Shown in pieces: positions 9,338 through 35,186 of a stretch of 64,000 nucleotides of DNA. Below the pieces are notes generated by a model. The model saw only the letters and a list, made by a program, of their open reading frames with translations, was not told where the DNA came from and ran no database searches. The translations under genes and the position numbers were made by a program. Source of the DNA: an uncultured Dehalococcoidales bacterium (GTDB taxonomy: Bacteria; Chloroflexota; Dehalococcoidia; Dehalococcoidales; E44-bin46). The DNA is taken from contig CAYHAL010000003.1 in NCBI GenBank assembly GCA_964354655.1, forward strand, positions 3,670-67,669, read 5' to 3'. Numbering within the stretch: the stretch's first letter is position 1; each line of letters starts with the position of its first letter.

Positions 9338-10162
9338 TTACAAAACGTTGGTAAAATGGCTGGCGCGCAGCCGGGATAACCCGAAGGAAATGAGTAACAC
9401 GGTTCCGCCGAAGAGGATGATAGTGGCTCCAGAAGGCAACCCGAGCTCAAAGGATAACCACAGCCCCCCAAAGGTGAACAGGGCACCAAAAAGAGTGGCA
9501 AATAGCATCATCTTTTTCATGTTGTGAGTGCACTGCCGCGCCAGCGCCGCCGGAAAGGTAAGCAGGGCAATCACCAGAATCATCCCCACTACCCTGATAA
9601 GCACCACCACGGTAAGGGCAATCATGCAGAGCAAAAGAAGATAGAGCCTATCAACTGGCACGCCGACGACTGTGCCGAACTCTTCGTCAAAGGACAGGAG
9701 CAAGAACTCCTTGTACAAAGCAGCGACAATCCCGATGATAACCCCATCCAGTATGAGCATCATAAGGATGTCACTAAAGGGAACGACCAGGATATTGCCG
9801 AAGAGGTAGCTCATCAGGTCCGGGGCATAGCCCGGGGTCAGGTTGATGAAAATAATTCCCAGGGCCATACCCATAGCCCAGAGGATGCCGATGGCTGTGT
9901 CTTCGGGGAGCCTGGTCTTGCGGGTGATACCTCCGATTGCCAGACCTGAACCTAGGGAGAAGAACATAGCTCCGATTACGGGGTTTATCCCCAAAAAGTA
10001 GCCGAGGCCGATGCCACCGAAGGAGGCGTGGGCAATGCCGCCGCTAATAAACACCACTTTCTTCACCACCACATAGACACCAACGATGCCGCAGGCGACT
10101 GATGCCAGCAGCCCTGCCAGCAGTGCATTCTGCATGAATTCGTAATGCAGTGCTTCCAGCAT
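9338..10162 (-). CDS. Metal (Zn/Mn) ABC transporter permease, ABC-3 family
   Basis: 274-aa polytopic membrane protein, last gene of the SBP-ATPase-permease operon. Confidence 0.8.
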
Positions 10163-10165
10163 ACT

Positions 10166-10924
10166 CTAGTGCTCCTTGAGCACCCGGTGTGGCACCGGCC
10201 CATGAGCAATCAGCTGCACCGGGCACTGATAGGTGGCTTCAAGCACCTCTGGCGTGATTTCCTTAGAGCCGTGATAAAAGAGCTGGCGGTTCAGACAGGC
10301 AATCTTATCCACGTAGACGGAAACGGCACCAATATCATGAGACACCATCACGATGGCCAGGCTCTGCTTCAGGTCCTGAAGCATCTCGTAGAACTGGGTC
10401 TGCATCGCTGGGTCAATACTAGCCGTCGGTTCATCCAGTAGCAGCAACTTCGGCTCGGCGACCAGCGCCCGGGCAATAAAAACCCTCTGCTGCTGGCCCC
10501 CAGAAAGCCTGCCTATCTGTTCATTACGGTAATCCAGCATGCCCACCTTGATAAGGGACTTCTCCACCGCCGCCCTATCGCTATGGCTGTAGCGCCGGAA
10601 GAGACCGGTTTTGCCGTAGCGGCCCATCATCACTACTTCCCAAACACTCACCGGGAAGTCACGGTCAAAGGCGTAACGCTGGGAAACATAGCCAATCTGG
10701 CTCCGGCTTTGCTCGGGAGGCTGCCCGAAGACGGACACAGAGCCACGGAACGGTTTTACCAGACCCAGAATCACCTTAAGGAGGGTGCTCTTACCGCCGC
10801 CATTGGGTCCGATGATACCTAGGAAGTCATGCTGAAAGACAGAAAGGGCAATGCTTTCCAGCACACTCACATCGTTATACTTTACCCAGATGTCCTTCAG
10901 CCCGACAATCTCTAACTCAGCCAT
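10166..10924 (-). CDS. Metal (Zn/Mn) ABC transporter ATP-binding protein
   Basis: Walker A GPNGGGKST, signature LSGGQQQR, Walker B LLLLDEP. Confidence 0.85.
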   Translation of the reverse strand: MAELEIVGLKDIWVKYNDVSVLESIALSVFQHDFLGIIGPNGGGKSTLLKVILGLVKPFRGSVSVFGQPPEQSRSQIGYVSQRYAFDRDFPVSVWEVVMMGRYGKTGLFRRYSHSDRAAVEKSLIKVGMLDYRNEQIGRLSGGQQQRVFIARALVAEPKLLLLDEPTASIDPAMQTQFYEMLQDLKQSLAIVMVSHDIGAVSVYVDKIACLNRQLFYHGSKEITPEVLEATYQCPVQLIAHGPVPHRVLKEH

Positions 10925-14639: not shown

Positions 14640-14655
14640 GCGCTAAAAAATTATT

Positions 14656-14682
14656 GGGGGCGGTATTTAAAATACCGCCCCC
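14656..14682 (+). terminator. GC-rich intercistronic hairpin (partial terminator / mRNA stabiliser) after the SBP gene
   Basis: GGGGGCGGTATT (14656-14667) pairs with AATACCGCCCCC (14671-14682). There is no T-tract on the + strand, so probably not a full terminator. Confidence 0.4.
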
Positions 14683-14722
14683 AAAAGCAATCCAAGTTTT
14701 AGATCCGAGGTTGAACTAAGAT

Positions 14723-15592
14723 ATGGATTTACAAACTGCGATACAGACAGCGGCTAATGCGGGAGCAGCTAGCTGTATGCTAATGATGATAGCTGTGGGG
14801 CTATCTCTGGCCTTCGGCGTAATGCAAATGGCAAATTACGCTCATGGGGAATTCTTCATGGCGGGCGCTTATACGGTATATGCCCTCTACGCCCTGGGTG
14901 GTGTGCCATTCTGGGTAGCAATAGGAGCGGGAGCCGGGGTAGTATGTGTCATTGGTCTAGCTGTAGAGCGAGTAATTTTCAGGCCAACGCGGGGGAATGT
15001 GCTCGCTGGTTTTATGGCAACCTGCGGCTTTGCTTTTATCGTCCAGGTTTTCTGCGGTGAAGTGTGGGGGTGGGGATTGATGAAGTATCTCCCCAAGCCC
15101 TACATGATTCCCTTTAATGTCATGGGTGCCTCAGTAGACTTCGCCAGAATGCTGATAATACCCTTTGCCATTGCTGGCATAGGAGGGCTCATCTTCTTCA
15201 TGCGCCGGTTTAAGCTGGGGCAAGCACTGCGTGCCGTGGCTCAGGACCCAGAGGCTGCCTCTTTACAGGGGATAAGCATCAATAAAATTACAGCGCTGGC
15301 TATGGGCATCTCCGGTGCTCTTGCTGGCCTAGCCGGTGGATTAATGTCAGTAATATATGCCGTAACTCCCACGCTGGGGCACCAAGTTATCTTGCCCGCC
15401 TTCATCGTAGTTATTGTAGGAGGGATGGGAAGCGTGGAGGGTGCCGTTATCACCTCCATTATCTTCGGCTTTACCCACACCTTCGTCACTACGATATTCG
15501 ACGCCGTTGTCGCCCAGATGGTTATTGTAGCCGTTATGGCTGGCGTACTAATAATGAGACCACAGGGGTTAATGGGCCGTGTTGCAATTTAA
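14723..15592 (+). CDS. livH: Branched-chain-amino-acid-type ABC permease (LivH family), unit 1
   Basis: 289-aa polytopic protein with RAVAQDPEAASLQGI, typical of LivH. Confidence 0.85.
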   Translation: MDLQTAIQTAANAGAASCMLMMIAVGLSLAFGVMQMANYAHGEFFMAGAYTVYALYALGGVPFWVAIGAGAGVVCVIGLAVERVIFRPTRGNVLAGFMATCGFAFIVQVFCGEVWGWGLMKYLPKPYMIPFNVMGASVDFARMLIIPFAIAGIGGLIFFMRRFKLGQALRAVAQDPEAASLQGISINKITALAMGISGALAGLAGGLMSVIYAVTPTLGHQVILPAFIVVIVGGMGSVEGAVITSIIFGFTHTFVTTIFDAVVAQMVIVAVMAGVLIMRPQGLMGRVAI

Positions 15593-16556
15593 TATACGAA
15601 GGTTCAGGATGGGGGCACTACCGGCCTTAATCATAGGGCTCTCTATTATGCCCTTCTTCGCCAGGGAATACGTCGTTGAGGTCGCTATCCTATTTTTTAT
15701 CTACATAATCCTGGCTCAAAGCTACCGCCTGGTAACTACTACACATGACTGGACACTGTGCCATGTTGTGTTGTACGGTGTCGGTGCCTACACCAGTGGC
15801 TTAATAGCCAAGTATTTCGGTATCCCCGTTTGGGTATGCATCCCCATCGGAGGGGTGATGGCAAGCCTAGTAGGCGTAGGGGTCATTCAGCCTTTGCTGA
15901 GAACCGTCGGCTTCGGTTTCTTTATCGCCTCCTATGCTCTGGGGGAATTGATAAGGCTGATCTGGGTCAAGGTTCACACCCCCTTCGGAGGTCCCCGGGG
16001 TATTATAGACATCCCCTACCCTCCGGTAGTAGCCGGGATAGACTTTAGTAAACCTATCCCCTACTACTTCATGTGCCTTGTGGCAATGCTGGTATGCCTA
16101 TACCTTATGTACCGCGTAGACAAGTCGCGTATAGGGGATGCCTTTAAGTCTATCTCCATCCATCCCCTATTGGCGGAATCCATAGGGATAAGCGTTCCCA
16201 AATACAGAACACTAGCCATGGCAATCGGTGCCTTCTTTGCCGGCATCGCCGGTGCCCTTCTGGTTCACCGCCTCGGCGCTGTGGACCCGAGGGTGTTCGA
16301 CATCATCACCATGGTATATCTCGTCATCTGGGTGGTGGTAGGCGGCACCAATACCTTCTTGGGTCCCATAATCGGGGTTGTTGTGATGCAAGCCATCTTC
16401 GAATTCACACGCCCCTTCTTGGAAATGAGACCCATGTTTTTCGGCATCATCTTGATACTGTTCCTAGTCTTCCTGCCCGGCGGCATTGAGAGTATCATCG
16501 CTAAGGCTATGGCCCGATTCCGAGCACGACGACGTGTAGTAGCGAAAACAGGTTAA
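15579..16556 (+). CDS. livM: Branched-chain-amino-acid-type ABC permease (LivM family), unit 1
   Basis: 325-aa polytopic protein that overlaps the livH stop. The start is uncertain; an alternative ATG lies at 15609. Confidence 0.85.
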   Translation: MLQFNIRRFRMGALPALIIGLSIMPFFAREYVVEVAILFFIYIILAQSYRLVTTTHDWTLCHVVLYGVGAYTSGLIAKYFGIPVWVCIPIGGVMASLVGVGVIQPLLRTVGFGFFIASYALGELIRLIWVKVHTPFGGPRGIIDIPYPPVVAGIDFSKPIPYYFMCLVAMLVCLYLMYRVDKSRIGDAFKSISIHPLLAESIGISVPKYRTLAMAIGAFFAGIAGALLVHRLGAVDPRVFDIITMVYLVIWVVVGGTNTFLGPIIGVVVMQAIFEFTRPFLEMRPMFFGIILILFLVFLPGGIESIIAKAMARFRARRRVVAKTG

Positions 16557-16585
16557 GATTGCTCCCGCCAAGCTGGTTATTAAAA

Positions 16586-16630
16586 AATAACCCGAGTAAG
16601 TAGGTCATTACTCGGGTTATTTTTATTTTT
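16586..16630. terminator. Bidirectional Rho-independent terminator between convergent livM and livG
   Basis: AATAACCCGAGTAA (16586-16599) pairs with TTACTCGGGTTATT (16608-16621). An A-tract precedes it and TTTTATTTTT follows. Confidence 0.7.
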
Positions 16631-16671
16631 GTCGTTAAAATAGCCGTTACCGAGCTATAGGTAAGTTGATA

Positions 16672-17442
16672 TTAACCAAGAAGCTCTGCTCTTCCCAGGT
16701 AGGCTTCGATAACCTCTTCATTCGACTGTATTTCCTTGGGTTTGCCTTCAGCAAGCTTCCTCCCGAAACTGAGCACGGTTATGTAGTCGCACACTCCCAT
16801 GACCGTCTTCATATCGTGCTCTACCAGTAGCACGGTTATCCCCTCTTTCCGTATCCTCTTAATTATGCTTAACATATGTGCCTTTTCCGTAGGGTTCATA
16901 CCGGTAACCGGTTCATCTAGCATGAGCAGTTTTGGCTCTGCCGCCAGAGCAACACTAACCCCCAATGCCCGCATATAGCCGTGAGGAAGGTTTATAGCCA
17001 GTTCATCCTTGATGTGCGTCATCTCCATAAAGTCAACTATCTCCTCGGCCTTCTTCAGGGCTTCCCTTTCCACCCTTCTGGTGCTAGGAGTACTACCCAT
17101 CACCCCAAAAACATTTTCCCCGGCATGCAGGTGACGCCCAACGGATATATTTTGCAGCACAGTGAAATTCATAAACAACGCAGTCTGCTGGAAGGTCCGG
17201 ATGAGGCCCCTTCTGGCTACTTTACTTGGCGGGAGGATAGTTATATCCTCGCCCTGATACCATATAGTCCCCGTCGTTGGTAGATAGACCCCACTGATAA
17301 CATTATACAGGGTTGTCTTTCCCGAACCATTAGGGCCAATGAGCCCTCTGATTTCCCCTTCGTTCACCTCCATATCAAAATCGCTTAGAGCAGCCAAACC
17401 GCCGAAATACTTACTCACCCCTTTGACTTCAAGTAGAGCCAT
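16672..17442 (-). CDS. livG: Liv-type ABC ATP-binding protein (LivG family), unit 1
   Basis: Walker A GPNGSGKTT, Walker B LLMLDEP, and the LivG-type C-terminus VIEAYLG. I chose the ATG at 17442, which is preceded by GGAAAGGAGGG. Confidence 0.85.
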   Translation of the reverse strand: MALLEVKGVSKYFGGLAALSDFDMEVNEGEIRGLIGPNGSGKTTLYNVISGVYLPTTGTIWYQGEDITILPPSKVARRGLIRTFQQTALFMNFTVLQNISVGRHLHAGENVFGVMGSTPSTRRVEREALKKAEEIVDFMEMTHIKDELAINLPHGYMRALGVSVALAAEPKLLMLDEPVTGMNPTEKAHMLSIIKRIRKEGITVLLVEHDMKTVMGVCDYITVLSFGRKLAEGKPKEIQSNEEVIEAYLGRAELLG

Positions 17443-17836
17443 AAACCAGCCCTCCTTTCCTACCATGGTATGAATAAAAAGCAGAGCTACTGGTGTGAAT
17501 TTAGCATAGGTGGCTTAGTTTGTCAATAGAGTGTGGGTGGTGGTTCTGTTCGGCTGACGTTGATAACCCTAGAATAGATTAAGCAATTATCACCTTCAAA
17601 AGGCCTCATTAGCTGTCGGCAAAGCTTGTGCCTGTGGGATTTTATCAGCTTACGCCGCTCTTCATCCTCGCTAATGGTCCCCTCCTTCCACTTCTCGGCA
17701 ACAATGCTTGACACGAGGGCAGGCGTGTGCTACACTTCCCGCCGTAAGCTGGTAGTGGGCTGAAAAATAGCCGGCTTTTAAGCGTAACCACAATCGTTTA
17801 TTTTTGCTGCTCTAACAATAGCCAGAATTTTTATTT

Positions 17837-18673
17837 ATGATGTCTATTACATTAACAGAAACTCAAAAACAACGCCTGCGAGAATTGGATGCTGATACAA
17901 ACTTGGTAGAAAAGGTATTCAGCAATGCCCAAGAGAGGGACGCAAGTTTCAAGATGATAGAGAAAAGGTTGATTGGAGAGGAAAAACAGCGTTTACAAAA
18001 CCTCCGCAACTATCATCGCTACCCCATGATTTGCCAAGTAGAGAGGACCCTTGTAGATAAGCTTACAGAAGAAGGTTTTGTACAAGTCATTACTCCGATA
18101 ATAATAACTAAAAGGTTTTTAGAAAAGATGTCTATCACCGCCAACAATCCCCTGATAAATCAGGTTTTTTGGCTCAGTAAGAATAAATGTTTACGGCCTA
18201 TGCTGGCACCGAATCTTTATCATCTCTTAAGACGGCTTGTTCGCTTATGGGAAAAACCTATTCGTATTTTTGAAATAGGCCCATGCTTTCGCAAAGACTC
18301 TAAAGGGAGTGAGCATCTAAATGAGTTTACCATGTTAAACCTTGTTGAGTTGGGCTTATCCCAAGAAAGCAGACTTGAGCGGTTAAAAGAGTTGATTTCC
18401 CTCTTAATGGAGGCTGTAGGTATAAATGAGTACCAATTGGTTTCGAAGCCGTGTGAAGTCTATGGGGAAACAGTGGACATCATGGCTGGTACCGAACTCT
18501 GTTCGGCAGTCGTGGGTCCCCATCCATTAGATGACGCCTGGGGAATAGTCGACCCGTGGGTGGGATTAGGGTTTGGTTTGGAGAGGCTGGTGATGGTGAG
18601 ACAGGGATATCAAAATATTCAGAGAGTGGGACGCAGCCTCATATATCTTGATGGAATTAGACTGAACATTTAA
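17837..18673 (+). CDS. pylSc: Pyrrolysyl-tRNA synthetase, catalytic C-terminal protein (bacterial split form)
   Basis: 278 aa of class II aaRS core with PylRS-like segments: RPMLAPNLY, EIGPCFRKDSKGSEHLNEFTMLN and GLGFGLERL. It is followed by pylB and pylC. Confidence 0.9.
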   Translation: MMSITLTETQKQRLRELDADTNLVEKVFSNAQERDASFKMIEKRLIGEEKQRLQNLRNYHRYPMICQVERTLVDKLTEEGFVQVITPIIITKRFLEKMSITANNPLINQVFWLSKNKCLRPMLAPNLYHLLRRLVRLWEKPIRIFEIGPCFRKDSKGSEHLNEFTMLNLVELGLSQESRLERLKELISLLMEAVGINEYQLVSKPCEVYGETVDIMAGTELCSAVVGPHPLDDAWGIVDPWVGLGFGLERLVMVRQGYQNIQRVGRSLIYLDGIRLNI

Positions 18674-18715: not shown

Positions 18716-19831
18716 GTGATAAGAAACAATAGCTGTTTTTTGATAGAGGAAATATTAGATAAAGCACTCTGCGAGGAGCCTCTAAGCAGGGGGGAGATTC
18801 TTTATCTACTTAGATTAAATAAAGCTGAAGAAGTAAACAAACTTTTTACAGTAGCACAAAGATTAAGACGTCGATACTTTGGTAATAACATTTTTCTTTA
18901 TGGGTTCTTGTACTTCTCCACGTGGTGTCGCAATAACTGCGCTTTCTGCTGTTATCGCGCCTCCAATAGATTATGCCAGCGGTATCGAAAGACTGACCGC
19001 CAAATAATTGAGGTAGCCCTCGACATGGCAGCATCCGGTGTTCACTTGCTCGATTTAACCATGGGGGAGGACCCTTTTTATTACGAAAAAGAGGATGGTT
19101 TTGAACCACTGTTGCATTTGATAAAAGAAGTTAAAAGGGAAACATCTTTACCTATAATGATTTCCTTTGGAGCTATTCCCGACGAAGTTTTAAAGGAACT
19201 ATTTGAGACAGGGGCGGAATGGTATGCTTGCTATCAGGAAACCCATAATGAAAAACTCTTCTATCAGCTTCGGTTGGGCCAGAGTTACAGTGATAGGCTT
19301 AACAAAAAATATAAGGCGGCTAGGTTGGGCCTACTCATAGAGGAGGGGATATTGAGTGGGGTGGGGGAATCATTAGATGATGTAGCTGACTCCATGGAAG
19401 AGATGCGGAAGATGGGGGCTCATCAGGTACGGGTTATGAATTTTATTCCTCAACAGGGAACCCCCATGCAGGATTTCCCACCGCCCCCCAAAATGCGTGA
19501 GCTGCTGATTATTGCTGTTCTGCGTCTACTATTTCCCCGTAGGTTGATACCTGCCTCTCTCGATGTATATGGCATTGATGGGCTCAAGGGAAAGCTAGAA
19601 GCCGGAGCTAATGTAGTGACTTCATTGATTCTTCCCCATTCGGAAATGGTGGGTGTAGCCCAAAGTACTTTGGATATCTGTGAAGGTTATCGAACGGTAA
19701 AAGGAATAACCCCTATACTCAATGAATTGGGATTAACCAAGGCAGAGCTTCATGATTATGTCTCATGGATTGAGAATGAAAGGAAAAGCTATATAAACAC
19801 ATACCGCTTCAGGGAAAAGGTGTTATTGTGA
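18716..19831 (+). CDS. pylB: Radical SAM methylornithine synthase
   Basis: 371 aa with the radical SAM motif CRNNCAFC. It sits between pylSc and pylC. GTG start. Confidence 0.9.
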   Translation: MIRNNSCFLIEEILDKALCEEPLSRGEILYLLRLNKAEEVNKLFTVAQRLRRRYFGNNIFLYGFLYFSTWCRNNCAFCCYRASNRLCQRYRKTDRQIIEVALDMAASGVHLLDLTMGEDPFYYEKEDGFEPLLHLIKEVKRETSLPIMISFGAIPDEVLKELFETGAEWYACYQETHNEKLFYQLRLGQSYSDRLNKKYKAARLGLLIEEGILSGVGESLDDVADSMEEMRKMGAHQVRVMNFIPQQGTPMQDFPPPPKMRELLIIAVLRLLFPRRLIPASLDVYGIDGLKGKLEAGANVVTSLILPHSEMVGVAQSTLDICEGYRTVKGITPILNELGLTKAELHDYVSWIENERKSYINTYRFREKVLL

Positions 19832-21009
19832 GAGTAGCCATTGTTGGGGGGAAACTGCAGGGAGTTGAAGCGGCTTTCCTAGCTCGTGAAGCAGGGTGGG
19901 AAGTAATTCTTATCGATAGGAAACAGAGCCCACCAGCAGCCAGATTATGCCAATCTTTTTATCACTGTGATGTTGTTAGAGATGTTTCATCTTTACCTCG
20001 GTTATTAGAAAAAGTTGATTTGATTATCCCGGCAGTTGAGGATGTTATTGCCCTTAGAGCTTTACAGAAATGTGCTGCCGAGATAAACATCCCTTTAGCT
20101 TATGATGCCAAAGCATATTTTATCAGCCATTCCAAGAAGCGTTCTAACCGCCTATTTGAAAAATTGGGCATTCCCTTGCCCCAAAGTTGGCCCCAGTGTG
20201 GACTGCCACTTATAGTAAAACCATCTGCCTCAAGCGGGAGTCATGGAGTATCCAAGCTATGCACTGAACAGGAACTGGGTGATTTTATTAAACGGGTAGG
20301 TTCAGGGCTGAAACACTGGATTTTACAGGAATATGTGGAGGGTCCGTCCTATTCTATCGAGGTCTTGGGTTTAGTTGGACGTTACGTAGCTCTCCAGGTC
20401 ACCGAGCTCGAGATGGATGGCGACTATGACTGTGAACGGGTTCTCGCCCCTGCCGAAATTCCAGAGTCTTTAGATAGGCAAATTAAAGAAATTGCCCTCA
20501 CTATTGCCAAGAGCCTTCGTTTGAAAGGAATTATGGATGTTGAGGTTATCCTTGACCATGGTGGTGTTCCTAGGGTGTTAGAAATTGATGCCCGACTTCC
20601 AAGTCAGACTCCTACCGCAGTTTATGAGTCCACAGGGATTAATATGTTGGAACTATTAGGGCACATATTTGTCACAGATACGATGCCTGTAATCCCTGAA
20701 ATAAAAGCATTAAGAGGAGTTGTCTACGAGCATATTAAGGTTTCCCAAAATGGTTTAGAATTTCTGGGAGAACATATTATAGGAGAAGTCGATTCCCTTG
20801 AAATTGTCCACGATTTTTTTGGAGCCGACGTAAGTCTGACAAACTTTAATTCATCGTCATTTCCTTGGGTAGCTACGTTGATTACTACCGGAGAAAGCCG
20901 AGAACAAGCGTGGCTTAAACGTCAGCAAGTTATTGAAAATATTAAAAGTTATCTTGGAAGACCCACTCGCTTCCAAAGCCAGCCTGAAGAGATGGTAAAA
21001 ACGGGTTAA
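19828..21009 (+). CDS. pylC: ATP-grasp 3-methylornithine--L-lysine ligase
   Basis: 393-aa ATP-grasp fold protein that overlaps the pylB stop by 4 nt. Its last 6 codons lie inside the pylT-derived repeat. Confidence 0.85.
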   Translation: MRVAIVGGKLQGVEAAFLAREAGWEVILIDRKQSPPAARLCQSFYHCDVVRDVSSLPRLLEKVDLIIPAVEDVIALRALQKCAAEINIPLAYDAKAYFISHSKKRSNRLFEKLGIPLPQSWPQCGLPLIVKPSASSGSHGVSKLCTEQELGDFIKRVGSGLKHWILQEYVEGPSYSIEVLGLVGRYVALQVTELEMDGDYDCERVLAPAEIPESLDRQIKEIALTIAKSLRLKGIMDVEVILDHGGVPRVLEIDARLPSQTPTAVYESTGINMLELLGHIFVTDTMPVIPEIKALRGVVYEHIKVSQNGLEFLGEHIIGEVDSLEIVHDFFGADVSLTNFNSSSFPWVATLITTGESREQAWLKRQQVIENIKSYLGRPTRFQSQPEEMVKTG

Positions 21010-21067
21010 TCGGGAAGATCACGCAGACTCTAAATTTGTGTAGCCGAGTGTAACTCTTGCCCCGCCA
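21003..21067 (+). pseudogene. Degenerate pylT copy (tRNA-Pyl-like; acceptor and T stems disrupted)
   Basis: The sequence is GGGTTAATCGGGAAGATCACGCAGACTCTAAATTTGTGTAGCCGAGTGTAACTCTTGCCCCGCCA. The D arm, the 6-bp anticodon stem, the CUA anticodon loop and the T loop are all retained. The 5' acceptor is shortened (GGG versus GGGGGG), and 4 nt are missing from the 3' T-stem/acceptor region relative to 29854..29925. Confidence 0.55.
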
Positions 21068-21071
21068 TGAC

Positions 21072-21099
21072 TTGACTAGAATAACAGGGGAGGTATAAT
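21072..21099 (+). promoter_or_regulatory. Candidate sigma70-type promoter for the mtbC-mtbB pair
   Basis: TTGACT (21072-21077), 16-nt spacer, TATAAT (21094-21099). Confidence 0.5.
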
Positions 21100-21266
21100 A
21101 ATTTAATAATTGGATAAGAGACAAGGGAAGATTCAGTGTGGTAGGTGGGTTGCGTTTAACACTGGGCTGATGAGTTGATTTCAAAGTAGTGAAAGGGGGT
21201 TAAAATGTTTTAATACGTGAGTGTTGTTACCAGCAGGCATTTTATCCAATAAAGGAGGTCGATACT

Positions 21267-21920
21267 ATGGGAAAAGAGCAACAAGAATTATTAAAAGAGG
21301 CAAAAAATTCAATTATTAATTTCGATGTAGATAAGGCTAAGGAAACAGCCAAGAAAGGCTTGGCGCTTGGGATTACGCCGGCTGTAATAATAAGTGAGGG
21401 ATTTGTTCCTGGGATAACTGAGGTCGGTGATCTTTTTGATAGGGGACAATTATTCTTGCCGGAGTTGATATTGGCGGCCGAAGCCATGAAAGCCGGAACA
21501 ACTATATGTGAGGCTGCACTCCCCAAAAGTGAACTTAAGGCGAAGAAGAAGGTTGTAATAGGGACTGTAGAAGGAGATATTCACGACATTGGAAAATCAA
21601 TTGTCGTATCCTTCTTAATGGCCAACGGCTTTGAAGTCTATGATATAGGTAGAGATGCCCCAATTGAGAATTTTATTAATAAGGCTCGTGAGGTAAACGC
21701 AGATGTGATTGGAAGCAGTGCTTTATTGACGACAACTATGGAGGGGCAGAAGAAGATAGAGGAGGAGCTAAGGGAAGCCGGGTTGCGAGATAAAGTCAAG
21801 ACAATTGTGGGTGGAGCGCCGTGCAGCCAGGGATGGGCTGATCGGATAGGAGCCGATGCCTATGCTGAAAATGCTGTGGATGCAGTAATAAAGATAAAAG
21901 AATTAACCGGTTTAAGTTAA
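21267..21920 (+). CDS. mtbC: Methylamine-specific corrinoid protein (B12-binding, MtbC/MttC family)
   Basis: 217 aa with the B12-binding motif GDIHDIGK (DxHxxG) and ...GGAP. It lies directly upstream of mtbB and is a close paralogue of 32716..33366. Confidence 0.85.
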   Translation: MGKEQQELLKEAKNSIINFDVDKAKETAKKGLALGITPAVIISEGFVPGITEVGDLFDRGQLFLPELILAAEAMKAGTTICEAALPKSELKAKKKVVIGTVEGDIHDIGKSIVVSFLMANGFEVYDIGRDAPIENFINKAREVNADVIGSSALLTTTMEGQKKIEEELREAGLRDKVKTIVGGAPCSQGWADRIGADAYAENAVDAVIKIKELTGLS

Positions 21921-21944
21921 AAATATGTAGAAAGGAGGTGATTG

Positions 21945-23363
21945 ATGATGGCAAAGACGCTACAGCGCATGGGAGATGGTCGTATGGTGGAGATGACCGA
22001 GGCTGAGGTGAGGAAAGACATAGAAGAGGGGACTAAAGATGCTGCTAGCAGAGCCAAGGTTCCCCCGCTTTCTGAAGATGAGATAAAGCATATATTGGAT
22101 ATTTACACTCGGCCAGAAAGGGTTGTCAGCGTAGAGCCGGGGAACGAAGTTGTTCTATCCCATGATGAGGGTACCGTTAAAATAAATGCTGGTGTGTGTG
22201 GTGGAGCCGGATTAGGGATAGATTGCGGCAGGACGGTTGCCTCTGAGCTTTACGAGAGGGCGCTAGGTGCTGATATTATAGAATACGGCCATATTGACTA
22301 CAGCTTTAAGCCAATAAGGCCTATTTTGGCTGATGAGCGAATATTGGTGGAGCGAGCCTTATTGGTTACTACTGCCCCCTTCCTTTACGGGGCGATGCCC
22401 AACTTAGGCTTATATACTCAACCTGAAGGGCCCTTCCCCAATCCAACAGAACTGTTAAACAAGGGCCTTATAAAAGAAGCCAGGGAAAGCGGTGAAAGGA
22501 TGGTCGAGCAGGCGACTAACGATATGGTTTATATAGCCAGTGGTATCTATGAAGCTGGAGCCGATGCAATCAACTTTGATACTACAGGAGCGTTTGGAGA
22601 TCTAGACTTTGCCGCCGCTTTGACAGCAACTGAGCGCCTTAAGAAAAAGTATCCTGATATGTGTATAGAGATGGGGATGGCAGGGGAGTTTGTTCTAGGA
22701 ATACACGGAACGATAACCTATGATGGGGTGCGTTTGGCAGGTTTATACCCTCATCAACAGGTTAAATTAGCCGAGAAAGCTGGGGTTACTATTTTCGGAC
22801 CGGTGTGCAATATCGTCACTTCTAGGTCGTGTGCCTGGAATATAGCCCGTGTCATTACCTTCACCAAAGCCTGTGCTAAAGCTTCAAAGATACCAATCCA
22901 CAATAATATGGGAATGGGGGTTGGTGGCATTCCCTTGAATGATACCCCACCGGTAGATGCTGTAACCAGGGCGTCAAAAGCAGCTGTGGAAATCTGCCAG
23001 TTAGATGGGGTGTAGGTAGGCATTGGAGACATTCATGGCATGCTCGAAGCTCACGCCATGGCCTCAGGTATGGGTGGAATGCGTACCGCCGGAGATCTGG
23101 TGGCACGTATGGAAATGGCCAGAGGCATGAGAATTAAAGAAGCGAAAGAGTATGTCGCCAGCAAATTGAAGGTCTCGTTGAGGGAGCTCTCTGACCCGAT
23201 AGTCATGGGTGAGGTGAGAGATGAGCTTAAGCTAGGCCTCATTGCCCAGATGCCTAATCGTCCTAAGGGGATAGAGGCCAAGTTCCGTATTGCTGAACTA
23301 TTAGGAATCGAAATTAACTCGGTGAATAGATTCAAAGAAAAAGCCGGGCTTCCTGTTCGTTAA
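21945..23363 (+). CDS. mtbB: Dimethylamine:corrinoid methyltransferase with an in-frame UAG (pyrrolysine) codon at 23013-23015
   Basis: Track ORFs 21942..23015 and 23040..23363 share one frame and are separated by only a TAG. The joined product is about 472 aa and matches my recollection of Methanosarcina MtbB throughout (GHIDYSFKP, LYGAMPNLGLY, GMGVGGIP, DAVTRASKA, then TAG, then MRTAGDLVARME...KEAKEYVA). Confidence 0.88.
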
Positions 23364-23388
23364 ACCGAATAACTAATAGTGGGGGTGG

Positions 23389-23427
23389 AAAAAGACATCC
23401 ACCACCCCATATGGGGTGGTGGATGTC
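23389..23427. terminator. Perfect 15-bp hairpin between convergent mtbB and mtmB (terminator, T-tract on the - strand side)
   Basis: GACATCCACCACCCC (23394-23408), loop ATAT, GGGGTGGTGGATGTC (23413-23427). GGAAAAA precedes it, giving a U-tract for the minus-strand transcript. Confidence 0.7.
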
Positions 23428-23446
23428 TAGTGAGTTAAGCAACCTT

Positions 23447-24847
23447 TTACAGCTTAAACTCGAACCCAATTTTCTCCATGGTTTTCATTGCCTGCCCCAG
23501 CACTTGTAGATGCTCATCGGTGGGCTTCAGAGTGATAACGTTGTAGCACTCCTGGAAGGTCTTTCCTAAGGGTGCCGTGTTGAAGTTCCTCTTTGGCCCT
23601 GTCCCCTCGTAGTGGGTCACCAGCTTATCAAGTAAGTAGTTCACCTTTTCTGTCTCCATGCCGGCTACAGCTCGGGCGGCATAAGCCATCATGCGTGCTT
23701 CTATTGGGGTGGTGTAGTCTAGTCTCGTGCCTTTGGCCGAGGCGCAACCGCTCATAATCTCACGACCGCTAGCAGTATCGGTAATAGCCTGCCCAGCCGC
23801 CTCCAGCAAGCACATCTCAGTGCATGGTCCAGCGGCAGTATAATACTGGTTACCGGTGATAAAGTGTGAGTGGCGCTCAATAGCCATATTGGCATGCCCA
23901 GCGATCAACAACGTCTCCCTAGCCGTTGTGATTCCCCAGCGCACATGAGTTGGTCCATCCAGATGCCAGTCTGCTCCCACCAGTACGGGAGAGTTTAGAT
24001 GAGTGGCGGTGCAAACGATGGTGGTCTCTTCGAGCCCTCCGGCCCAGCCTCCCATGATAGGCATCTGCTCACACATAACAATATCGCCGTTCATCCTGTA
24101 ATGAGCAACAAAGGTAAGCGCCTCGAGATCAATCTTGAGCTCGCATAGCTGACTTACCTCATGATTATCACATGGTCTCATTCCTTCAGGAAAATCGGCA
24201 GCGATAACTCCCGCCGTGGTAAGCGGAGTCTCAGGGCCCTAGAAGCCCATCCCGGGGCGACCAGCTCGCCGTACTGCTTCACGAAGCGCCATTGCTTCTG
24301 CTTTAGCCGCCAAAATATCCCATGGGGTATTGGATGCCAAGGGGTGTCCATAGATAGTATTCCAAACCCCGTTGACGATGCAGTCTACCAAGGGCTCCCT
24401 GGCGAATGCTTCATGCGTCTCAATAAAGATATCCTCACTGACTGGGGCTCCAGTCGGCCCACCTTGGCACAGGGGTGGGCAGGGGTCATCAAAACTTCGG
24501 CCAGTCACACGCCGGGCATCCCGTCCCTCACCGATGACGATCTCACGAGGGACACCAGCCATAGTGTTCAGTATCTCCTCTTCGGTGTACTTGATGACAC
24601 GGCCGGTATCGATGCATAAAGTCCCACAGGTGACCAGCATCTCAAGGCCGGCCTGGAATAGGCGGTCTATCATATCCATATCAGTGGGGATAATCTTGGT
24701 CTTGTCGAACTTAAGATTATACTTTTCCTTTAATTTCCTTGCTGTTTCGGGGATGATTTTTCGATCCCATTCCGCCTCATCTACTTTGGGACCGGTAAGT
24801 GCCCGATCATAACTCTCGAACACATCACCCCTCTCTTTAACTACCAT
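23447..24847 (-). CDS. mtmB: Monomethylamine:corrinoid methyltransferase with an in-frame UAG (pyrrolysine) codon at 24241-24239
   Basis: Track ORFs 24239..24847 (202 aa) and 23447..24181 are in frame, and only a TAG interrupts them. The context is GRPGMG-TAG-GPET. Downstream segments NHEVSQLCELKIDL, WHLDGP, AAGPCTEMCLLEA, ITDTASGREI and GKTFQECY match remembered MtmB. Confidence 0.88.
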
Positions 24848-25967: not shown

Positions 25968-27800
25968 TTACTCCAAATGGGGATGCCTAGGGAAGTGCAT
26001 ACTCTCTATGAAGACCCGGCTGAAGTCCTTTAGATAGGAAAGCTCGAAGTATTCCACCTGCTCCGTCAGTCTTTGAATCTCTTCCCACTTCCCTCGATTT
26101 AGAAGGCAGAGCTTCGCTCCCTGTCCCGCCGTATTACCCACTGGCTTAATCTTGTTTAAGGGGAACTCGGGTAGCATTCCGATCCGAAGGACACTCTCCT
26201 TACTGACATAATTTCCAAAAGCCCCTGCCAAGTAGACCTTCTCCACCTCATTCAGGGTCACTCCCAACTCCCGCAACGCGATCTCTACCCCTGAGCGAAT
26301 AGCTCCCTTGGCCAACTGTAGCTCTCTCACATCCTGCTGGGTCAGGTAAATGGGTTTACTCCCATCACTCACCAGGAACTGAAGTTGGCCTTTCTCCCCC
26401 CGATGGATGCGATCACTGATGGGGAGGTTCGTCCGTTTCCCAAAGTTTCCCTTCTCATTGATTAACCCTACTTTGCAGAGCTCCCCCCCCAAGTCTATCA
26501 GTCCCGAACCACAGATCCCTTTTGGGACCCCATCCCCAATTATTTCCAGCCTTAAATCCTTGTCGTCTAGGAAAACGTGAGCCACTGCTCCAGGAAAAGC
26601 ACCCATTCCATACTTGATCCGTGCCCCCTCAAATGCTGGCCCCGCTGGTGTGGAGCATGCCAGTAAACGGTCTTTGTTTCCTAAAACAATTTCAGCGTTA
26701 GTTCCTATATCCACAAAGAGCTGGATACCTTTAGCTTGGTGAAGCCTGGTATAGAGAATACCGGCTGTGATGTCTGCTCCCACATAGCCTGAGATGCTGG
26801 GTAGGATGTGCACTTGCCCTTCTGGGTTCATGTCCAAGCCCAGCTCTAGCGCTGGCAGTATTAAGTTATCCCTCAGCACCGGGATGAAGGGGCTATGGTC
26901 AATGTTGGAGGGGTCTATGCCCGTGAAGAGGTGAATCATAGTGGGGTTCCCTGCCACAGTGGCTTTGTAGATATGGACAGGGCTCACCCTAGCTGCTTGA
27001 CACAACTGCTTAATCACCATGTTGATCCCTGAAGTTACCGCCATTTGCAGCTCCCTTAAACCCTCTTCTCCCTGCTCATGGACTTTTTTGATTCGACTGA
27101 TGACATCGTCCCCAAAGCTTCGCTGGGGGTTCATCCGGGAACGTACTGCAAGCTCCACACCTGTGTTTAGGCTTAAGAGATAGCCAGCTAGGGTTGTCGT
27201 CCCAATGTCTATAGCCACACCATACTGGGCTTCGGTTGTGTCCCCTGGTTCCAGGTCTAATACATGGTTTGCTGCCCAGGTTACCGTAAATTTAAAATCC
27301 CCTTCCCTAAGGAGGTTTGGGGCTTTCCTCAGAACTTGTAGGGGGAAAGTCAGTTGACCTTCCCCGAGTTCTTCTTGGAAACGAACGGTATCCGGGCGTT
27401 GGTCCTCTTGGCTTGGCGTGGGAAGCTCTAAATAAGCCTTTTTAACTCCGCTGTCCAAGGGGATACGAAGTACCTTGTTTAGTAGTTCCTTGGCGCGGAC
27501 AAGCTCTTCTACTTCAGGAATCTCCAGAACCAAATCCCGGTCAATATGCTGGATACAGGAAAGACGCCAGCCGGCTTCAAGCTCTGCCTCTGTCAGGTGC
27601 ACTCGCTCTGATTCAGCAGGCGCTCTAGCCCCCTTTGTGAAGAGGGCTCGACACTTCCCGCAGGTTCCCATCCCTCCACAAGCACTTGGCACGGAATAAC
27701 CCTGCCTGACAAGAAAGTGGAAAAGGTTCTCCCCTTCTTTAGCTTTTAACCTTTTCTTCTGGGGAAGGATGACGATGTTATATGTCTTTTCCTTCATCAT
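25968..27800 (-). CDS. RamA-like reductive activase of corrinoid enzymes (N-terminal 2Fe-2S ferredoxin + ASKHA/DUF4445 domain)
   Basis: 610 aa. The N-terminus has the plant-type ferredoxin motif CGGMGTCGKCR...C, followed by a long ASKHA-like region (DIGTTT, DIGTNAE). Confidence 0.75.
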   Translation of the reverse strand: MMKEKTYNIVILPQKKRLKAKEGENLFHFLVRQGYSVPSACGGMGTCGKCRALFTKGARAPAESERVHLTEAELEAGWRLSCIQHIDRDLVLEIPEVEELVRAKELLNKVLRIPLDSGVKKAYLELPTPSQEDQRPDTVRFQEELGEGQLTFPLQVLRKAPNLLREGDFKFTVTWAANHVLDLEPGDTTEAQYGVAIDIGTTTLAGYLLSLNTGVELAVRSRMNPQRSFGDDVISRIKKVHEQGEEGLRELQMAVTSGINMVIKQLCQAARVSPVHIYKATVAGNPTMIHLFTGIDPSNIDHSPFIPVLRDNLILPALELGLDMNPEGQVHILPSISGYVGADITAGILYTRLHQAKGIQLFVDIGTNAEIVLGNKDRLLACSTPAGPAFEGARIKYGMGAFPGAVAHVFLDDKDLRLEIIGDGVPKGICGSGLIDLGGELCKVGLINEKGNFGKRTNLPISDRIHRGEKGQLQFLVSDGSKPIYLTQQDVRELQLAKGAIRSGVEIALRELGVTLNEVEKVYLAGAFGNYVSKESVLRIGMLPEFPLNKIKPVGNTAGQGAKLCLLNRGKWEEIQRLTEQVEYFELSYLKDFSRVFIESMHFPRHPHLE

Positions 27801-28586: not shown

Positions 28587-29390
28587 TTAACTCATTTTGC
28601 TTCTTACATACCGAACATATTGAAGACAGTGGGCATCAATCCCTAATAGAGCTTCTGAGGCTCGCAGGATGTTTTTCATTTCTTCATCCTTGGGATTAAT
28701 AACAGCCATATCCAATCCTGCCTCAAGAAGCATGGCTAAAAAGGCTTGGTTGAGCAGGGTGCGGCTGGGTAATCCAAAGGAGACATTGGATAACCCTGTT
28801 GTTGTCTTCACCCCTCGGCTCCCATAGCACCTCTTGATCTCCCGTATGGTATTGATGACAACACGGGCTTGGTCTGGATTACTCCCGATGGACATCACTA
28901 AAGGGTCTATGAACAACCGCTGCAGACTTACTCCGGCTTCTTCTAGAGTATTAATTAGCTGTTCGACTTCCTGAAGGCGCTCCTCCACGGTGTTAGGCAT
29001 CCCCGTCTTTCCCCCCATGGTCAGACCGATAATATCGGCATCGTACCCTTTAACAATGGGGATGAGCCCCTGTTGTAGTCTAGGGTCATTATTGATGGAG
29101 TTGATAACAGGGCGGGCTCGACAAAGCTTTAGTCCTGCTGCCATAGCCTCAGGTTTAGGGGTGTCGATGGCTAGGCGTACCTCTCCCACCTCATCATAAA
29201 TAAGCCCAATCACCCACTTCATGTCATCAATCTCCTGCTCCATGCTGGTAGCAGTATTAATATCAAGAATGTCAGCCCCAGCCTCTACCTGCTCTCGGGC
29301 AAGACGCCGGATAGTAGCTTCATCCTTGGCTTGAAGAGCCTCCTTGACCGCTTTTCGCGTCGAGTTCAATAATTCTCCAATAATTAACAC
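28587..29390 (-). CDS. Pterin-binding methyltetrahydrofolate:corrinoid methyltransferase (MeTr/MtgA/AcsE-like)
   Basis: 267 aa of DHPS-like pterin-binding barrel: IIGELLNSTRK, GADILDINT and TTGLSNVSFGLP. Confidence 0.75.
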   Translation of the reverse strand: MLIIGELLNSTRKAVKEALQAKDEATIRRLAREQVEAGADILDINTATSMEQEIDDMKWVIGLIYDEVGEVRLAIDTPKPEAMAAGLKLCRARPVINSINNDPRLQQGLIPIVKGYDADIIGLTMGGKTGMPNTVEERLQEVEQLINTLEEAGVSLQRLFIDPLVMSIGSNPDQARVVINTIREIKRCYGSRGVKTTTGLSNVSFGLPSRTLLNQAFLAMLLEAGLDMAVINPKDEEMKNILRASEALLGIDAHCLQYVRYVRSKMS

Positions 29391-29461: not shown

Positions 29462-29824
29462 TTAATCCTTAGCCCCCACCTCTCGTGTCTTTCCCCCCAA
29501 ATTGTCTAAATAGGCAATCCGGCGACGCTTAAAAACTGTTGCCGAATATTTTTCAATCTTCCATTTAGGAATTCCACATTTCTCGCATGTCCTAGAAAAC
29601 CATTTATTACGAAGCCATCGGGCAGCACGACTATTTCTAGAATCGTGTATCACCATCTGTTTATTACAATGAGTAACCACATAAGCATAAGAATCACTGG
29701 TAATTTCAAAGGTTTTGATTCCATGGAGAACTCCCCGCCGGGAAGGCCATAGTTTTATCTTTTCTACCAATTTAAAAAGGGGGACTCGTCTCCAATAGAT
29801 TTTTTTTCGTGTCTTACCCGACAA
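29462..29824 (-). CDS. pylSn: Pyrrolysyl-tRNA synthetase N-terminal tRNA-binding protein (bacterial split form)
   Basis: 120 aa with a TTG start behind GGGGGAGAGAG. Segments KLWPSRRGVLHGIK..., NSRNSRAARWLRNKWFSRTCEKCG resemble the PylRS N-domain (zinc-binding, basic). It lies immediately downstream of pylT. Confidence 0.8.
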   Translation of the reverse strand: MSGKTRKKIYWRRVPLFKLVEKIKLWPSRRGVLHGIKTFEITSDSYAYVVTHCNKQMVIHDSRNSRAARWLRNKWFSRTCEKCGIPKWKIEKYSATVFKRRRIAYLDNLGGKTREVGAKD

Positions 29825-29853: not shown

Positions 29854-29925
29854 TGGCGGGGGGTCCGAGAGTTACACTCGGCTACACAAATTTAGAGTCT
29901 GTGTGATCTTTCCGATTAACCCCCC
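29854..29925 (-). tRNA. pylT: tRNA-Pyl (anticodon CUA), CCA encoded
   Basis: The minus-strand sequence is GGGGGGT-T-AATC-GGAAA-GATC-A-CACAGA-CTCTAAA-TTTGTG-TAG-CCGAG-TGTAACT-CTCGG-ACCCCCC-G-CCA. It has a 7-bp acceptor, one nucleotide between acceptor and D stem, a 5-nt D loop without GG, a 6-bp anticodon stem, a 3-nt variable loop and a non-canonical T loop. These are the published hallmarks of tRNA-Pyl. Confidence 0.9.
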
Positions 29926-29940: not shown

Positions 29941-30771
29941 TCACTGAACACAACTGGCATGAACAAACATGGTAGCCACACCAATCTCCAGCACATCATG
30001 AATCAAACGCTCTTTGACCAAGAAATAAGCCTCTTCACTTAATCCCAGCGGTATCCCGGGAGCAGCAATAAAAGTTTCTGGCTTGATATGTCTTGCCTGT
30101 ATAATATTAGCCGAAGGTGAAGCATCAAAAAATACTGTATATCGCCTAAGTGCCTCTTCTAGATTCCTTTCCACTGTAATTTCATGCCCTTTAACCAGTG
30201 ACTCCATTCTATCTTGATTAGGGTCAAAAGCTGCTACCTTCGCTCCCTTCTTTTTAAGAGATAAAACTGCATTCCAGCCCACCCGACCTGCTCCCCCAAT
30301 CACTAACACCTGGCGCTGGCTTAAATCTCCTGCCATGGCTTCTAATGCCGAAACATATCCTTTTGCTGTTGCCTCTACATTATCAATAATCCTCCTTAAG
30401 GGAAAGTTCAGGGCAATAAACCGGTTATCATCAGCCAAAAAAACAATGTCTGCGCCTTTCTCAATCCCTTCCGCCAGTCCAGCTATATCGCTATCCCTTG
30501 TTTTAAAAGCATTAACTCCAATGTGAATCAAAATTCCTTCAACCGCCTCAACAAAGTTTTCAATAACTCCTTGTCCCGAGGTTATGGGAACCACAGCTAC
30601 CGTATGGGAACCGATGGCAGCTCTTACCTTTTCTTCGCTGTCTTCTATAGAGCGACTGGCAATCTCTTTGAGTGACAAACCTGTTTTTCGAACTAACTCA
30701 GCCTCATAGGCAGGAAGTTTCTGTATTATATCCATTATATCTTCTTTTTTCAGGCGCGTCACCTCATTCAC
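29941..30771 (-). CDS. pylD: Pyrrolysine synthase (NAD-dependent dehydrogenase)
   Basis: 276 aa with the Rossmann motif VLVIGGAGRVGWNA. It is adjacent to pylT/pylSn and completes the pylBCD set. Confidence 0.85.
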   Translation of the reverse strand: MNEVTRLKKEDIMDIIQKLPAYEAELVRKTGLSLKEIASRSIEDSEEKVRAAIGSHTVAVVPITSGQGVIENFVEAVEGILIHIGVNAFKTRDSDIAGLAEGIEKGADIVFLADDNRFIALNFPLRRIIDNVEATAKGYVSALEAMAGDLSQRQVLVIGGAGRVGWNAVLSLKKKGAKVAAFDPNQDRMESLVKGHEITVERNLEEALRRYTVFFDASPSANIIQARHIKPETFIAAPGIPLGLSEEAYFLVKERLIHDVLEIGVATMFVHASCVQ

Positions 30772-30966
30772 CCTCTGGACGATGAAAATATACCAGCAAG
30801 ACCCACCCCTTCAGACTGGCTTTGGAAGCAGTGGGTCTTCCAAGGTAACTCTATCTTGAAACTTGCATCCCTTTCTTGGCTATCGAAAATTCTAACATAC
30901 CCCGCTCGCTCCTTGTCAAGCGCAGTAGCTTTCCCCCCTGATTCAACTCCTAGCTTTCTGAAGAGT

Positions 30967-31205: not shown

Positions 31206-32678
31206 ATGATTAGAGGAACGAGAGCCTCATATACACAACTTTCAGGCTGTGGTCTCAATATGTTTACCGATGATGAATTAGCTGAGCTGCATAGAGCCAC
31301 ACTGGATGTTCTAGAAGATGGCGGCATCATGGTGCTCAATGATGAAGCGCAGGAGATTTTCTACTCCCACGGCTGTAAAGTCGATAAGAAAACTAACATC
31401 GTCAAGATACCCCCTTACCTCGTCAATGAGGCAATAAATTCAGCTCCATCAAAGGTACTGCTTGCCGGTCGAAATCCCAAGTATGACATCGTCTTGGAAG
31501 GCACCAGGGTGGCAAACACCACCTTTGGTGTAGGCATAAAGGTGCTTGATTTAGACACGGGCAAACACAGAAACTCGACAAACAAAGATCTGGCTGAATC
31601 CGCAATATTAGCCGATGCTATTGAGGGAGTAGATGTTTTTACCCAGTCAGTGGTCCCCAGAGATGCACCTAGTCAGGTGGAAGACCTTATTGCTGCCGAG
31701 ACATGTCTTAGCAATTGTAGCAAACACTTCCACCATGTTGATATATTGTCTACCGAGAGTGTCAGAAGGTATTTTGACATGGGTGCTGCCATAGCCGGAA
31801 GCGCTGAGGAGATGAGGCGGCGACCGGTTTGTTCTATTCTAATCTGCCCGGTCAGCCCGTTGCAGCTTAGTCCTGAAGCCTGCGAGGTTATTATTGAATC
31901 GGCAAGGTTAGGCATACCCTGTAACATTTTGTCAATGGCGCTATCTGGGGGTACTGCCCCAGTCACCAATGCAGGAACACTGATAGTCCATAATGCCGAG
32001 GTGCTGGGGGGCATAACTTTAAGCCAGCTTACTAAGAAGGGAGCACCGGTAATCTATGGCAGCTCCACCACCATGTTCGATCTAGCCCTGGCCATCGCAC
32101 CGGTGGGAGCACCGGAAATGGGCATGATAAGCGCAGCGGTAGCCAAGCTTGGCCAGTATTACAACCTGCCGACTTATGTCTCCGGGACCTAGGCAGATTC
32201 TAAGGTACCTGATGCGCAGGCAGCTCACGAAAAAACGATAACAAATCTGCTGCCGGCCATCGCTGGGGCTAATCTGATTTATGGCATGGGTATGTTAGAA
32301 TCAGGACAGACTTGGAGTCATGAGCAACTGGTAATTGATAACGACATTGTAACTATGGTTAAACGGGTGATTCAGGGGATCGACGTTACCGATGATACAA
32401 TGGCCGTTGACATCGTAAAGCAGGCTCATAAGATAAAAGACTTCTTACATCAGAAACACACCATTCAGTTTATGAGAAGTCAATCAAGACCAAAATTGAT
32501 TGACCGCACTACCCGGGGAACTTGGGAGGCTAAGGGAGGCAAAGATTTAACCCAGAGGGCAAAAGAAGAAGCACGCAGGATCATAAAGACCCATCAACCT
32601 GAGCCTTTAAGCGATGATGTAAAGAAGACGCTACGCGAAATTGTTGACAGTGCTAGAAAAGAACTTGTACCTGATTGA
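31206..32678 (+). CDS. mttB: Trimethylamine:corrinoid methyltransferase with an in-frame UAG (pyrrolysine) codon at 32190-32192
   Basis: Track ORFs 31206..32192 and 32286..32678 share one frame. The only interruption is the TAG in ...YVSGT-TAG-ADSKVPDAQAAHEKT.... The joined product of about 490 aa has an MttB-family sequence (LNDEAQEI, ANLIYGMGMLESG). Confidence 0.9.
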
Positions 32679-32715
32679 TAACTTTCTAATAACCAGAAGA
32701 AAGGAGAGCACTACT

Positions 32716-35100: not shown

Positions 35101-35186
35101 GCCAGGTATAAGCTAGACAGAGCAGTACCTAGCCGGGGTGACAGGGATTAGTTACCAGCCCCGGCTAGGTTTGATAGGAAGTTTAT

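Follow-up and report, generated by a model that had tools for sequence, protein, structure and literature searches.

Gene structure and surroundings of mtbB

The window analysed here, i.e. the whole stretch of 64,000 nucleotides (nt) from contig CAYHAL010000003.1 of an uncultured Dehalococcoidales bacterium, harbors on its forward strand a gene for a dimethylamine:corrinoid methyltransferase (mtbB, 21945..23363), which comprises 472 codons including one in-frame TAG at 23013..23015. We consider it very probable that two neighbouring open reading frames (ORFs) at this site form one bacterial mtbB gene, and that its single in-frame TAG, aligned with a TAG in homologous genes, encodes pyrrolysine (Pyl), the 22nd amino acid, as residue 357. 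The gene starts with ATG at 21945 (alternatively ATG at 21948), with GGAGG at 21934-21938, 6 nt 5' of ATG 21945, and ends with TAA at 23361-23363. Translation of 21942-23366 displays one internal stop, the TAG, and no frameshift. The first-pass annotation of this DNA had joined the ORFs 21942..23015 and 23040..23363 of the forward strand. They do share one frame, their starts being 1098 nt or 366 codons apart; as had been claimed, TAG is the sole stop between them and is codon 357 counted from ATG 21945, and the eight codons from the TAG to ATG 23040 read VGIGDIHG. The C-terminal 115 codons (23016..23360, forward strand), whose coding nature is indicated by dN/dS (see below), are reached by read-through only, and an ORF caller turns them into a separate ORF of 107 amino acids (aa) at ATG 23040. 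The expectation that ordinary callers split the gene is borne out by a public assembly, in which the identical sequence is called as two genes of 356 aa and 107 aa.

The read-through product of 472 aa matches the Pfam family Dimeth_Pyl (PF09505) with 670 bits over profile positions 5-462 of 463, and the NCBIfam equivalog TIGR02368 with 538.2 bits (cutoff 369.1). MtbB methylates the corrinoid protein MtbC from dimethylamine (DMA) (PMC9842639), and pyrrolysine is the catalytic residue in the methylamine methyltransferase class (PMC9842639, PMC2933860). The three families of this class are unrelated in sequence; the structures of MtmB and MttB are TIM barrels, and a structure of MtbB is still being sought (PMC9842639). 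By sequence search, no solved structures with detectable similarity to MtbB were found. A confident AlphaFold2 model computed from 30 sequences (pLDDT 86, pTM 0.89) retrieves generic TIM barrels only in a Foldseek search of the PDB (BHMT, UroD, MtaA-like 4ay8, HisF), with TM at most 0.4.

Directly 5' of mtbB, in the same operon, lies a gene for an MtbC-like corrinoid protein (21267..21920, forward strand; TIGR02370, 247.9 bits, cutoff 215.3; Pfam B12-binding and B12-binding_2). A strong promoter-like site is located 5' of this mtbC-mtbB pair and just 3' of a decayed copy of pylT described below (21072..21099, forward strand); it consists of TTGACT and TATAAT at a spacing of 16 nt and is defined by consensus match only (11 of 12 positions). 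Between mtbB and the convergent mtmB, a perfect 16-bp hairpin with the loop ATAT (23393..23428; -37 kcal/mol, z -4.8) is found, which is without a T-run and hence does not appear on the terminator-scan list. It is likely a bidirectional terminator or a stabiliser of the mRNA 3' end.

Conservation of the TAG codon in the MtbB family

The codon aligned with the TAG was read in 79 genomic loci from GTDB species representatives, one of which (L042) could not be scored. The set of distinct genes with a locatable motif amounts to 90, inclusive of the window gene and a Methanosarcina-type gene (L081). The aligned codon is TAG in all 90, from at least six phyla, and never TAA or TGA; sources include Dehalococcoidia, Desulfobacterales, Aminicenantes, Firmicutes, Thermoleophilia, Acidobacteriota and others. 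Protein data provide a complementary picture: among 5.8 billion proteins searched, roughly 115 of the 120 top-ranking homologs break off near 75% of the query length (348-356 aa), a pattern typical of callers that halt at a conserved TAG. Three database homologs are full-length (P0033, P0048, P0105). The glutamine that P0033 and P0048 display in the Pyl column was considered as a true residue and rejected, as it reflects recoding of TAG by the gene caller.

The alignment to MtbB proposed in the first-pass annotation was performed. The window product is collinear at full length, and its TAG shares a column with that of L081, one of the full-length homologs above, which adjoins mttB and corrinoid genes and carries its TAG at codon 356; the position of about 356 given earlier for Methanosarcina MtbB thus agrees. 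The part downstream of the TAG proved homologous to the MtbB C-terminus, as PF09505 extends to position 462 of 463 and the segment is under purifying selection. In Methanosarcina barkeri, mtbB1-3 contain one amber codon each, and pyrrolysine was confirmed there by mass spectrometry (PMC2933860). The link to this biochemically characterised MtbB was made via that review and the TIGR02368 equivalog model.

Some observations concern the codon and its immediate surroundings. A full-length MtbB-family gene in assembly GCA_016278615.1 (JADQBM010000005.1; L080, 3001-4401) has TTG (Leu) where the others have TAG, and neither corrinoid nor pyl genes in its vicinity; it could represent a non-Pyl homolog of MtbB or the result of a recent change from TAG to TTG. 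Across the family, the codon before the TAG is, with few exceptions, the same Leu codon (diversity 0.09 vs 0.78 expected); it is Val in the window (GTG, 23010-23012) and in its closest relative, and Ile in the locus L002. In at least 90% of the genes, the TAG is followed by G. These constrained flanking bases may represent an effect of codon context on suppression.

Selection downstream of the TAG

In a threaded alignment with 8 relatives, dN/dS after the TAG is 0.04-0.25 (111-115 codons), next to 0.04-0.11 in the part before it. One might suspect a pseudogene, in which a nonsense mutation killed mtbB and left the downstream ORF as a decaying remnant; a fresh mutation of this kind would look like one in-frame stop, and rearrangement and decay do occur elsewhere in the locus (pseudo-pylT and cassette fragments, see below). 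Such an origin is contradicted by the TAG at the same codon in 90 of 90 homologs, by the low downstream dN/dS together with 84-89% amino-acid identity to close relatives, and by the lack of any other stop or frameshift. The conserved TAG and the purifying selection behind it effectively refute this reading, and we regard its probability as negligible.

The same region bears on the idea of a split gene, i.e. that the TAG terminates translation, that a second polypeptide is made from ATG 23040, and that the two pieces assemble. This ATG is conserved and has GGAGA 10 nt before it, and TAG works as a stop elsewhere in the window. However, the 8-codon interval from the TAG to the ATG is conserved as protein, with G359, G361, D362 and G365 invariant. 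GGAGA corresponds to Gly-Asp codons, in which the third position of Gly varies freely in the family, so that there is no conserved Shine-Dalgarno sequence and re-initiation at ATG 23040 is not conserved. In addition, the stop is always TAG and never TAA or TGA, a complete Pyl system is co-located, and pyrrolysine stands at the equivalent position of archaeal MtbB according to mass spectrometry (PMC2933860). A split gene therefore appears very unlikely, and one continuous read-through product remains the preferred reading.

Pyrrolysine genes and the double role of UAG

The window encodes five pyl proteins. On the forward strand, pylSc (17837..18673; TIGR02367, 360 bits, cutoff 178) specifies the catalytic subunit of PylRS in its bacterial split form, pylB (18716..19831; TIGR03910, 482.5 bits, cutoff 348) a methylornithine synthase, and pylC (19828..21009; TIGR03909, 433 bits, cutoff 248) a 3-methylornithine--L-lysine ligase. 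On the reverse strand, pylD (29941..30771; TIGR03911, 266.7 bits, cutoff 150) and pylSn (29462..29824; TIGR03912, 127 bits, cutoff 51), the tRNA-binding small subunit of PylRS, enclose an intact gene for tRNA-Pyl, pylT (29925..29854, reverse strand), with a CUA anticodon and encoded CCA. Transfer RNA for pyrrolysine commonly escapes standard tRNA scans; in the window, pylT was missed by ARAGORN with default settings and by the Rfam tRNA model, and was recovered by motif search and by ARAGORN at a relaxed threshold. It folds into a cloverleaf (-27.2 kcal/mol, z -3.05) with a D-loop of 5 nt, an anticodon stem of 6-7 bp and a variable region of 2-3 nt. The pylT of close relatives shares 96% identity with it and is likewise located between pylD and pylSn.

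These genes speak to a further alternative, namely that UAG is read through by a canonical amino acid, inserted by a near-cognate or other suppressor tRNA, and not by pyrrolysine. The TTG (Leu) of L080 at this position indicates that the fold tolerates a canonical residue. Against this stand the five pyl protein genes and the intact tRNA(CUA) at most 9 kb from mtbB, the role of pyrrolysine as catalytic residue of the enzyme class (PMC9842639, PMC2933860), and a tRNA scan of the window that revealed no other suppressor tRNA. We consider insertion of a canonical amino acid extremely unlikely, in favor of pyrrolysine.

TAG is also used as a genuine stop. Among the 53 likely genes of the window, 11 end in TAG, which is not depleted; for 9 of them, a second in-frame stop comes within 4-20 codons. 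UAG is hence ambiguous here and not reassigned, and its decoding is a matter of competitive suppression. Recent work on methanogens argues for a UAG ambiguity of this kind, governed by the supply of and demand for pyrrolysine, with no general sequence-specific signal (PMC12626013).

The gene for the large subunit of an isopropylmalate/homoaconitate isomerase (4554-5807, forward strand) ends in TAG (5805-5807), and the ORF for the small subunit (5808-6302, forward strand) starts in the same frame at the codon right after it; the layout recurs on the Logan contig L088. In a Pyl-decoding cell, read-through at 5805-5807 would fuse the two subunits. On the reverse strand, the gene for a Znu-type ABC ATPase (10924..10166) ends in TAG, and a permease ORF (10162..9338) begins in the same frame one codon later (junction at 10162-10168), a second potential read-through fusion. 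In the close relative L083 (2584-5472), as well as in L084 and L085, prfA and prmC are located directly 5' of pylSc on the same strand. The product of prfA is release factor 1, which reads UAG, and prmC encodes the methylase of release factor 1.

A rearranged pyl cassette

The pyl cassette of the window is broken into two inverted partial copies, pylSc-pylB-pylC on the forward strand and pylD-pylT-pylSn on the reverse strand. After pylC, a decayed pseudo-pylT (21000-21067, forward strand) forms a 91% inverted repeat with the true pylT. This segment, which contains CTCTAAA, was considered as pylT and rejected: it has a deletion of 3 nt in the 5' acceptor strand, its T-stem and 3' acceptor strand are damaged, and it does not form a cloverleaf (z +0.63). 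An Rfam E-value scan of 20900-21300 yielded no match. Upstream of pylD there are short remnants of the 3' end of pylC and of the 5' region of pylSc, and a piece of the pylB 5' end follows mttC; the matching pairs of segments map to 17929-17955 and 30853-30879, 20969-20995 and 30803-30829, and 18747-18775 and 33366-33394. The relatives L083-85 have a single colinear pyl cassette, and a relative with 84% MtbB identity displays the colinear order prfA-prmC-pylSc-mtbC-pylB-pylC-pylD-pylT-pylSn-mtbB-MeTr. This arrangement suggests that the cassette was duplicated in inverted orientation and that the two copies then decayed in a complementary way.

Several points weigh against the assignment of the gene as a Pyl-dependent DMA methyltransferase, or against parts of it. 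The corrinoid protein encoded at 21267..21920 scores 243.8 with the MtbC equivalog NF041607, which is under the cutoff of 350; the TIGR02370 match identifies it as the corrinoid partner, but this score does not support a DMA-specific subtype. The presumed specificity of MtbB for DMA derives from family membership only, and no characterised bacterial MtbB was found in the literature. TAG is undepleted as a stop codon. The rearranged cassette with its decayed pylT copy leaves open, without suggesting it, a decay of the system.

A conserved mRNA stem-loop downstream of the TAG

The Rfam model PYLIS_2 (RF02509) matches the forward strand starting at the TAG (23013..23112) with 64.8 bits (gathering score 36). 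Its helix 1 (columns 7-38; 23019-23050), for which 72% of cells pair in the family, is not formed here, with 10 non-canonical pairs flagged, and its pair counts over the family are no higher than in shuffles. Over the whole model, pair counts in the 90 genes are barely above those of shuffles; for both helices together, double-change pairs number 3 vs 2.9 in shuffles, a value reached by 419 of 500 shuffles. The 100-nt fold after the TAG is unremarkable (z -1.69). PYLIS_2 as a whole was rejected as evidence for a functional insertion element, since helix 1 fails and the 100-nt fold does not stand out. At helix 2 (columns 73-92), the inner 7 bp are preserved both in the window and in 88-100% of bacterial homologs, and pairs 75-90 and 78-87 covary.

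These 7 bp belong to a longer stem-loop of 13 bp with an AGAU loop (23079..23110, forward strand; +67..+98 from the TAG; -17.4 kcal/mol, z -3.5). In a codon-threaded alignment of the 90 mtbB genes, the strongest synonymous-site constraint of the whole gene is located 20-31 codons past the TAG (GCC GGA GAT CTG). Pairing is observed in 90.8% of cells vs 85.2% in shuffles, and both the double-change pairs (6 vs 3.2 expected) and the further pair types (21 vs 16.2 expected) exceed what any of 500 shuffles reaches. By parsimony on a neighbour-joining tree, compensatory changes arose independently 13 times at pair 72-93 and 12 times at pair 75-90; each of these pairs connects synonymous third positions. 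Within the subset restricted to synonymous changes, pairing is kept in 50 of 66 sequences, with 28 expected (p<1e-4). Shuffles within clades are still significant (p = 0.014, 0.0006, 0.04). The stem-loop is intact in mtbB of Natroniella, Thermincola and Thermoleophilia, absent in the Methanosarcina-type gene (7 of 13 pairs), and mostly kept in the TTG homolog L080 (11 of 13).

The covariation shows 23079-23110 to be a real RNA element of the bacterial-type mtbB clade, one that, by its distribution, is neither universal in Pyl-dependent mtbB nor strictly tied to UAG. That it represents a functional cis-element specific to bacterial-type mtbB we regard as rather doubtful. If so, it might increase the amount of full-length protein, e.g. 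by slowing downstream ribosome traffic; alternatively, it might protect the transcript against Rho or RNase action during pausing or termination of ribosomes at the UAG.

The inner helix had already been predicted by Theil Have et al. 2013 (PMC3639795). Our element and PYLIS_2 (RF02509; PMC3639795) thus coincide in model helix 2, and differ in that helix 1 is unsupported and the element of the window is longer by an outer helix of 6 bp. A PYLIS is reported as lacking in mtbB and as non-essential in mtmB (PMC2933860), and the literature argues against a required Pyl insertion element (PMC2933860, PMC12626013). If functional, the stem-loop would be the first sequence-specific aid to bacterial Pyl decoding, none being currently established. 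The conserved hairpin is a testable candidate for the question whether mRNA context assists Pyl insertion.

Methylamine locus and proposed pathway

Further genes of methylamine metabolism share a 15-kb region with mtbB, namely those for the corrinoid protein, MeTr and RACo, as well as mtmB and mttB, each with TAG. On the reverse strand, mtmB (24847..23447) has its TAG at 24241-24239 (codon 203); on the forward strand, mttB (31206..32678) has its TAG at 32190-32192 (codon 329) together with an Rfam PYLIS_3 match of 93 bits. Downstream of mttB follows the gene for its own corrinoid protein (about 32700-33366), which makes two corrinoid proteins in the 15 kb. A MeTr-like methyltransferase for methyl-tetrahydrofolate (methyl-THF):corrinoid transfer (28587..29390, reverse strand) is recognized by NF005719 (276 bits, cutoff 259). 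A RACo/RamA-like reductive activase of corrinoid proteins (25968..27800, reverse strand) carries the Pfam domains RACo_C_ter, Raco_middle, RACo_linker and Fer2, and scores below cutoff with TIGR04270.

Based on this gene content, we infer that UAG 23013-23015 is read by Pyl-tRNA(CUA) from pylT (29925..29854). The tRNA would be charged by the split PylSc/PylSn with pyrrolysine, which in turn would be made from two lysines via PylB, PylC and PylD. Competition between Pyl-tRNA and release factor would yield the 472-aa enzyme and some 356-aa product. Such competition is probably tolerable through high or induced expression of pyl and methyltransferase genes, and not through an obligatory insertion element. 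According to the enzymology of the family, the full-length protein would be a TIM-barrel enzyme in which the Pyl in the active site would bind and activate dimethylamine, and a methyl group would pass to Co(I) of the corrinoid protein encoded at 21267-21920. In a non-methanogen host the methyl group would most likely proceed to tetrahydrofolate via the MeTr-like enzyme (28587-29390), and oxidised cobalt may be re-reduced by the RACo/RamA-like protein (25968-27800). The pathway from DMA via methyl-Co(III)-corrinoid to methyl-THF is thus modelled on characterised archaeal enzymes. With mttB, mtbB and mtmB, the locus may support stepwise demethylation of tri-, di- and monomethylamine.

Comparison with known systems and relevance for annotation

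MtbB of the window resembles M. barkeri MtbB1/2/3 (PMC2933860) in its membership of PF09505/TIGR02368, its collinear sequence of about 50% identity, its adjacent corrinoid gene, and its single TAG in the same column (codon 356 in L081, codon 357 here). It differs in its bacterial host and in the methyl acceptor, which is probably THF via a MeTr-like enzyme and not coenzyme M via MtbA; also, the Methanosarcina-type gene is without the stem-loop of the bacterial clade at +67..+98. Bacterial mtbB genes with in-frame Pyl codons were described from marine Deltaproteobacteria/Desulfobacterales (PMC8318568) and an Olavius symbiont (PMC1976440). Those of Deltaproteobacteria/Desulfobacterales fall into the same bacterial-type clade (56-63% identity) and share both TAG codon and stem-loop, but belong to another phylum and often occur in several copies per locus.

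The cassettes of Desulfitobacterium hafniense and Acetohalobium arabaticum (pylT-pylSc-pylB-pylC-pylD-pylSn) likewise have a split PylRS and clustered pyl and methyltransferase genes. In contrast to such bacterial cassettes, pylT of the window is placed between pylD and pylSn instead of heading the operon, and the cassette is broken into inverted partial copies. Mukai et al. 2017 (PMC5424206) described pylSc/pylSn of the Chloroflexi type as well as a Dehalococcoid lineage that uses Pyl. The nearest mtbB genes are found in Dehalococcoidales metagenome-assembled genomes (MAGs; 82-83% identity), and the RACo protein clusters at 90% identity or more with a protein labelled as coming from a Dehalococcoidia bacterium.

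The mtbB gene, correctly recognised in the first-pass annotation, is an ordinary textbook case of stop-codon recoding, of a kind that is already known and that gene callers commonly split. It matters mainly for annotation, where standard callers split the gene and truncate most of its database homologs (about 115 of the best 120), so that the potential of Dehalococcoidia and other sediment bacteria for methylamine use is under-counted. By its gene content, the locus would represent a complete methyl-transfer system from tri-, di- and monomethylamine to THF, combined with a cassette for genetic-code expansion, in a Chloroflexota MAG.

Other genes in the window

The methylamine genes are flanked by two sets of Liv/Urt-type ABC transporter genes (13128-17466 and 33628-37893). 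Near the 5' end of a gene for a periplasmic binding protein (33628-35100), the forward strand contains about 6 tandem copies of the 15-nt unit AACTCCACCACCAGT (33699-33798), which probably encode a repetitive linker. Further downstream, a cluster of HdrA-like flavoprotein genes extends over 38553-48351 of the forward strand, and the region 43894-48351 (forward strand) encodes a fusion protein of 1485 aa with a GltD-like and two HdrA-like modules.

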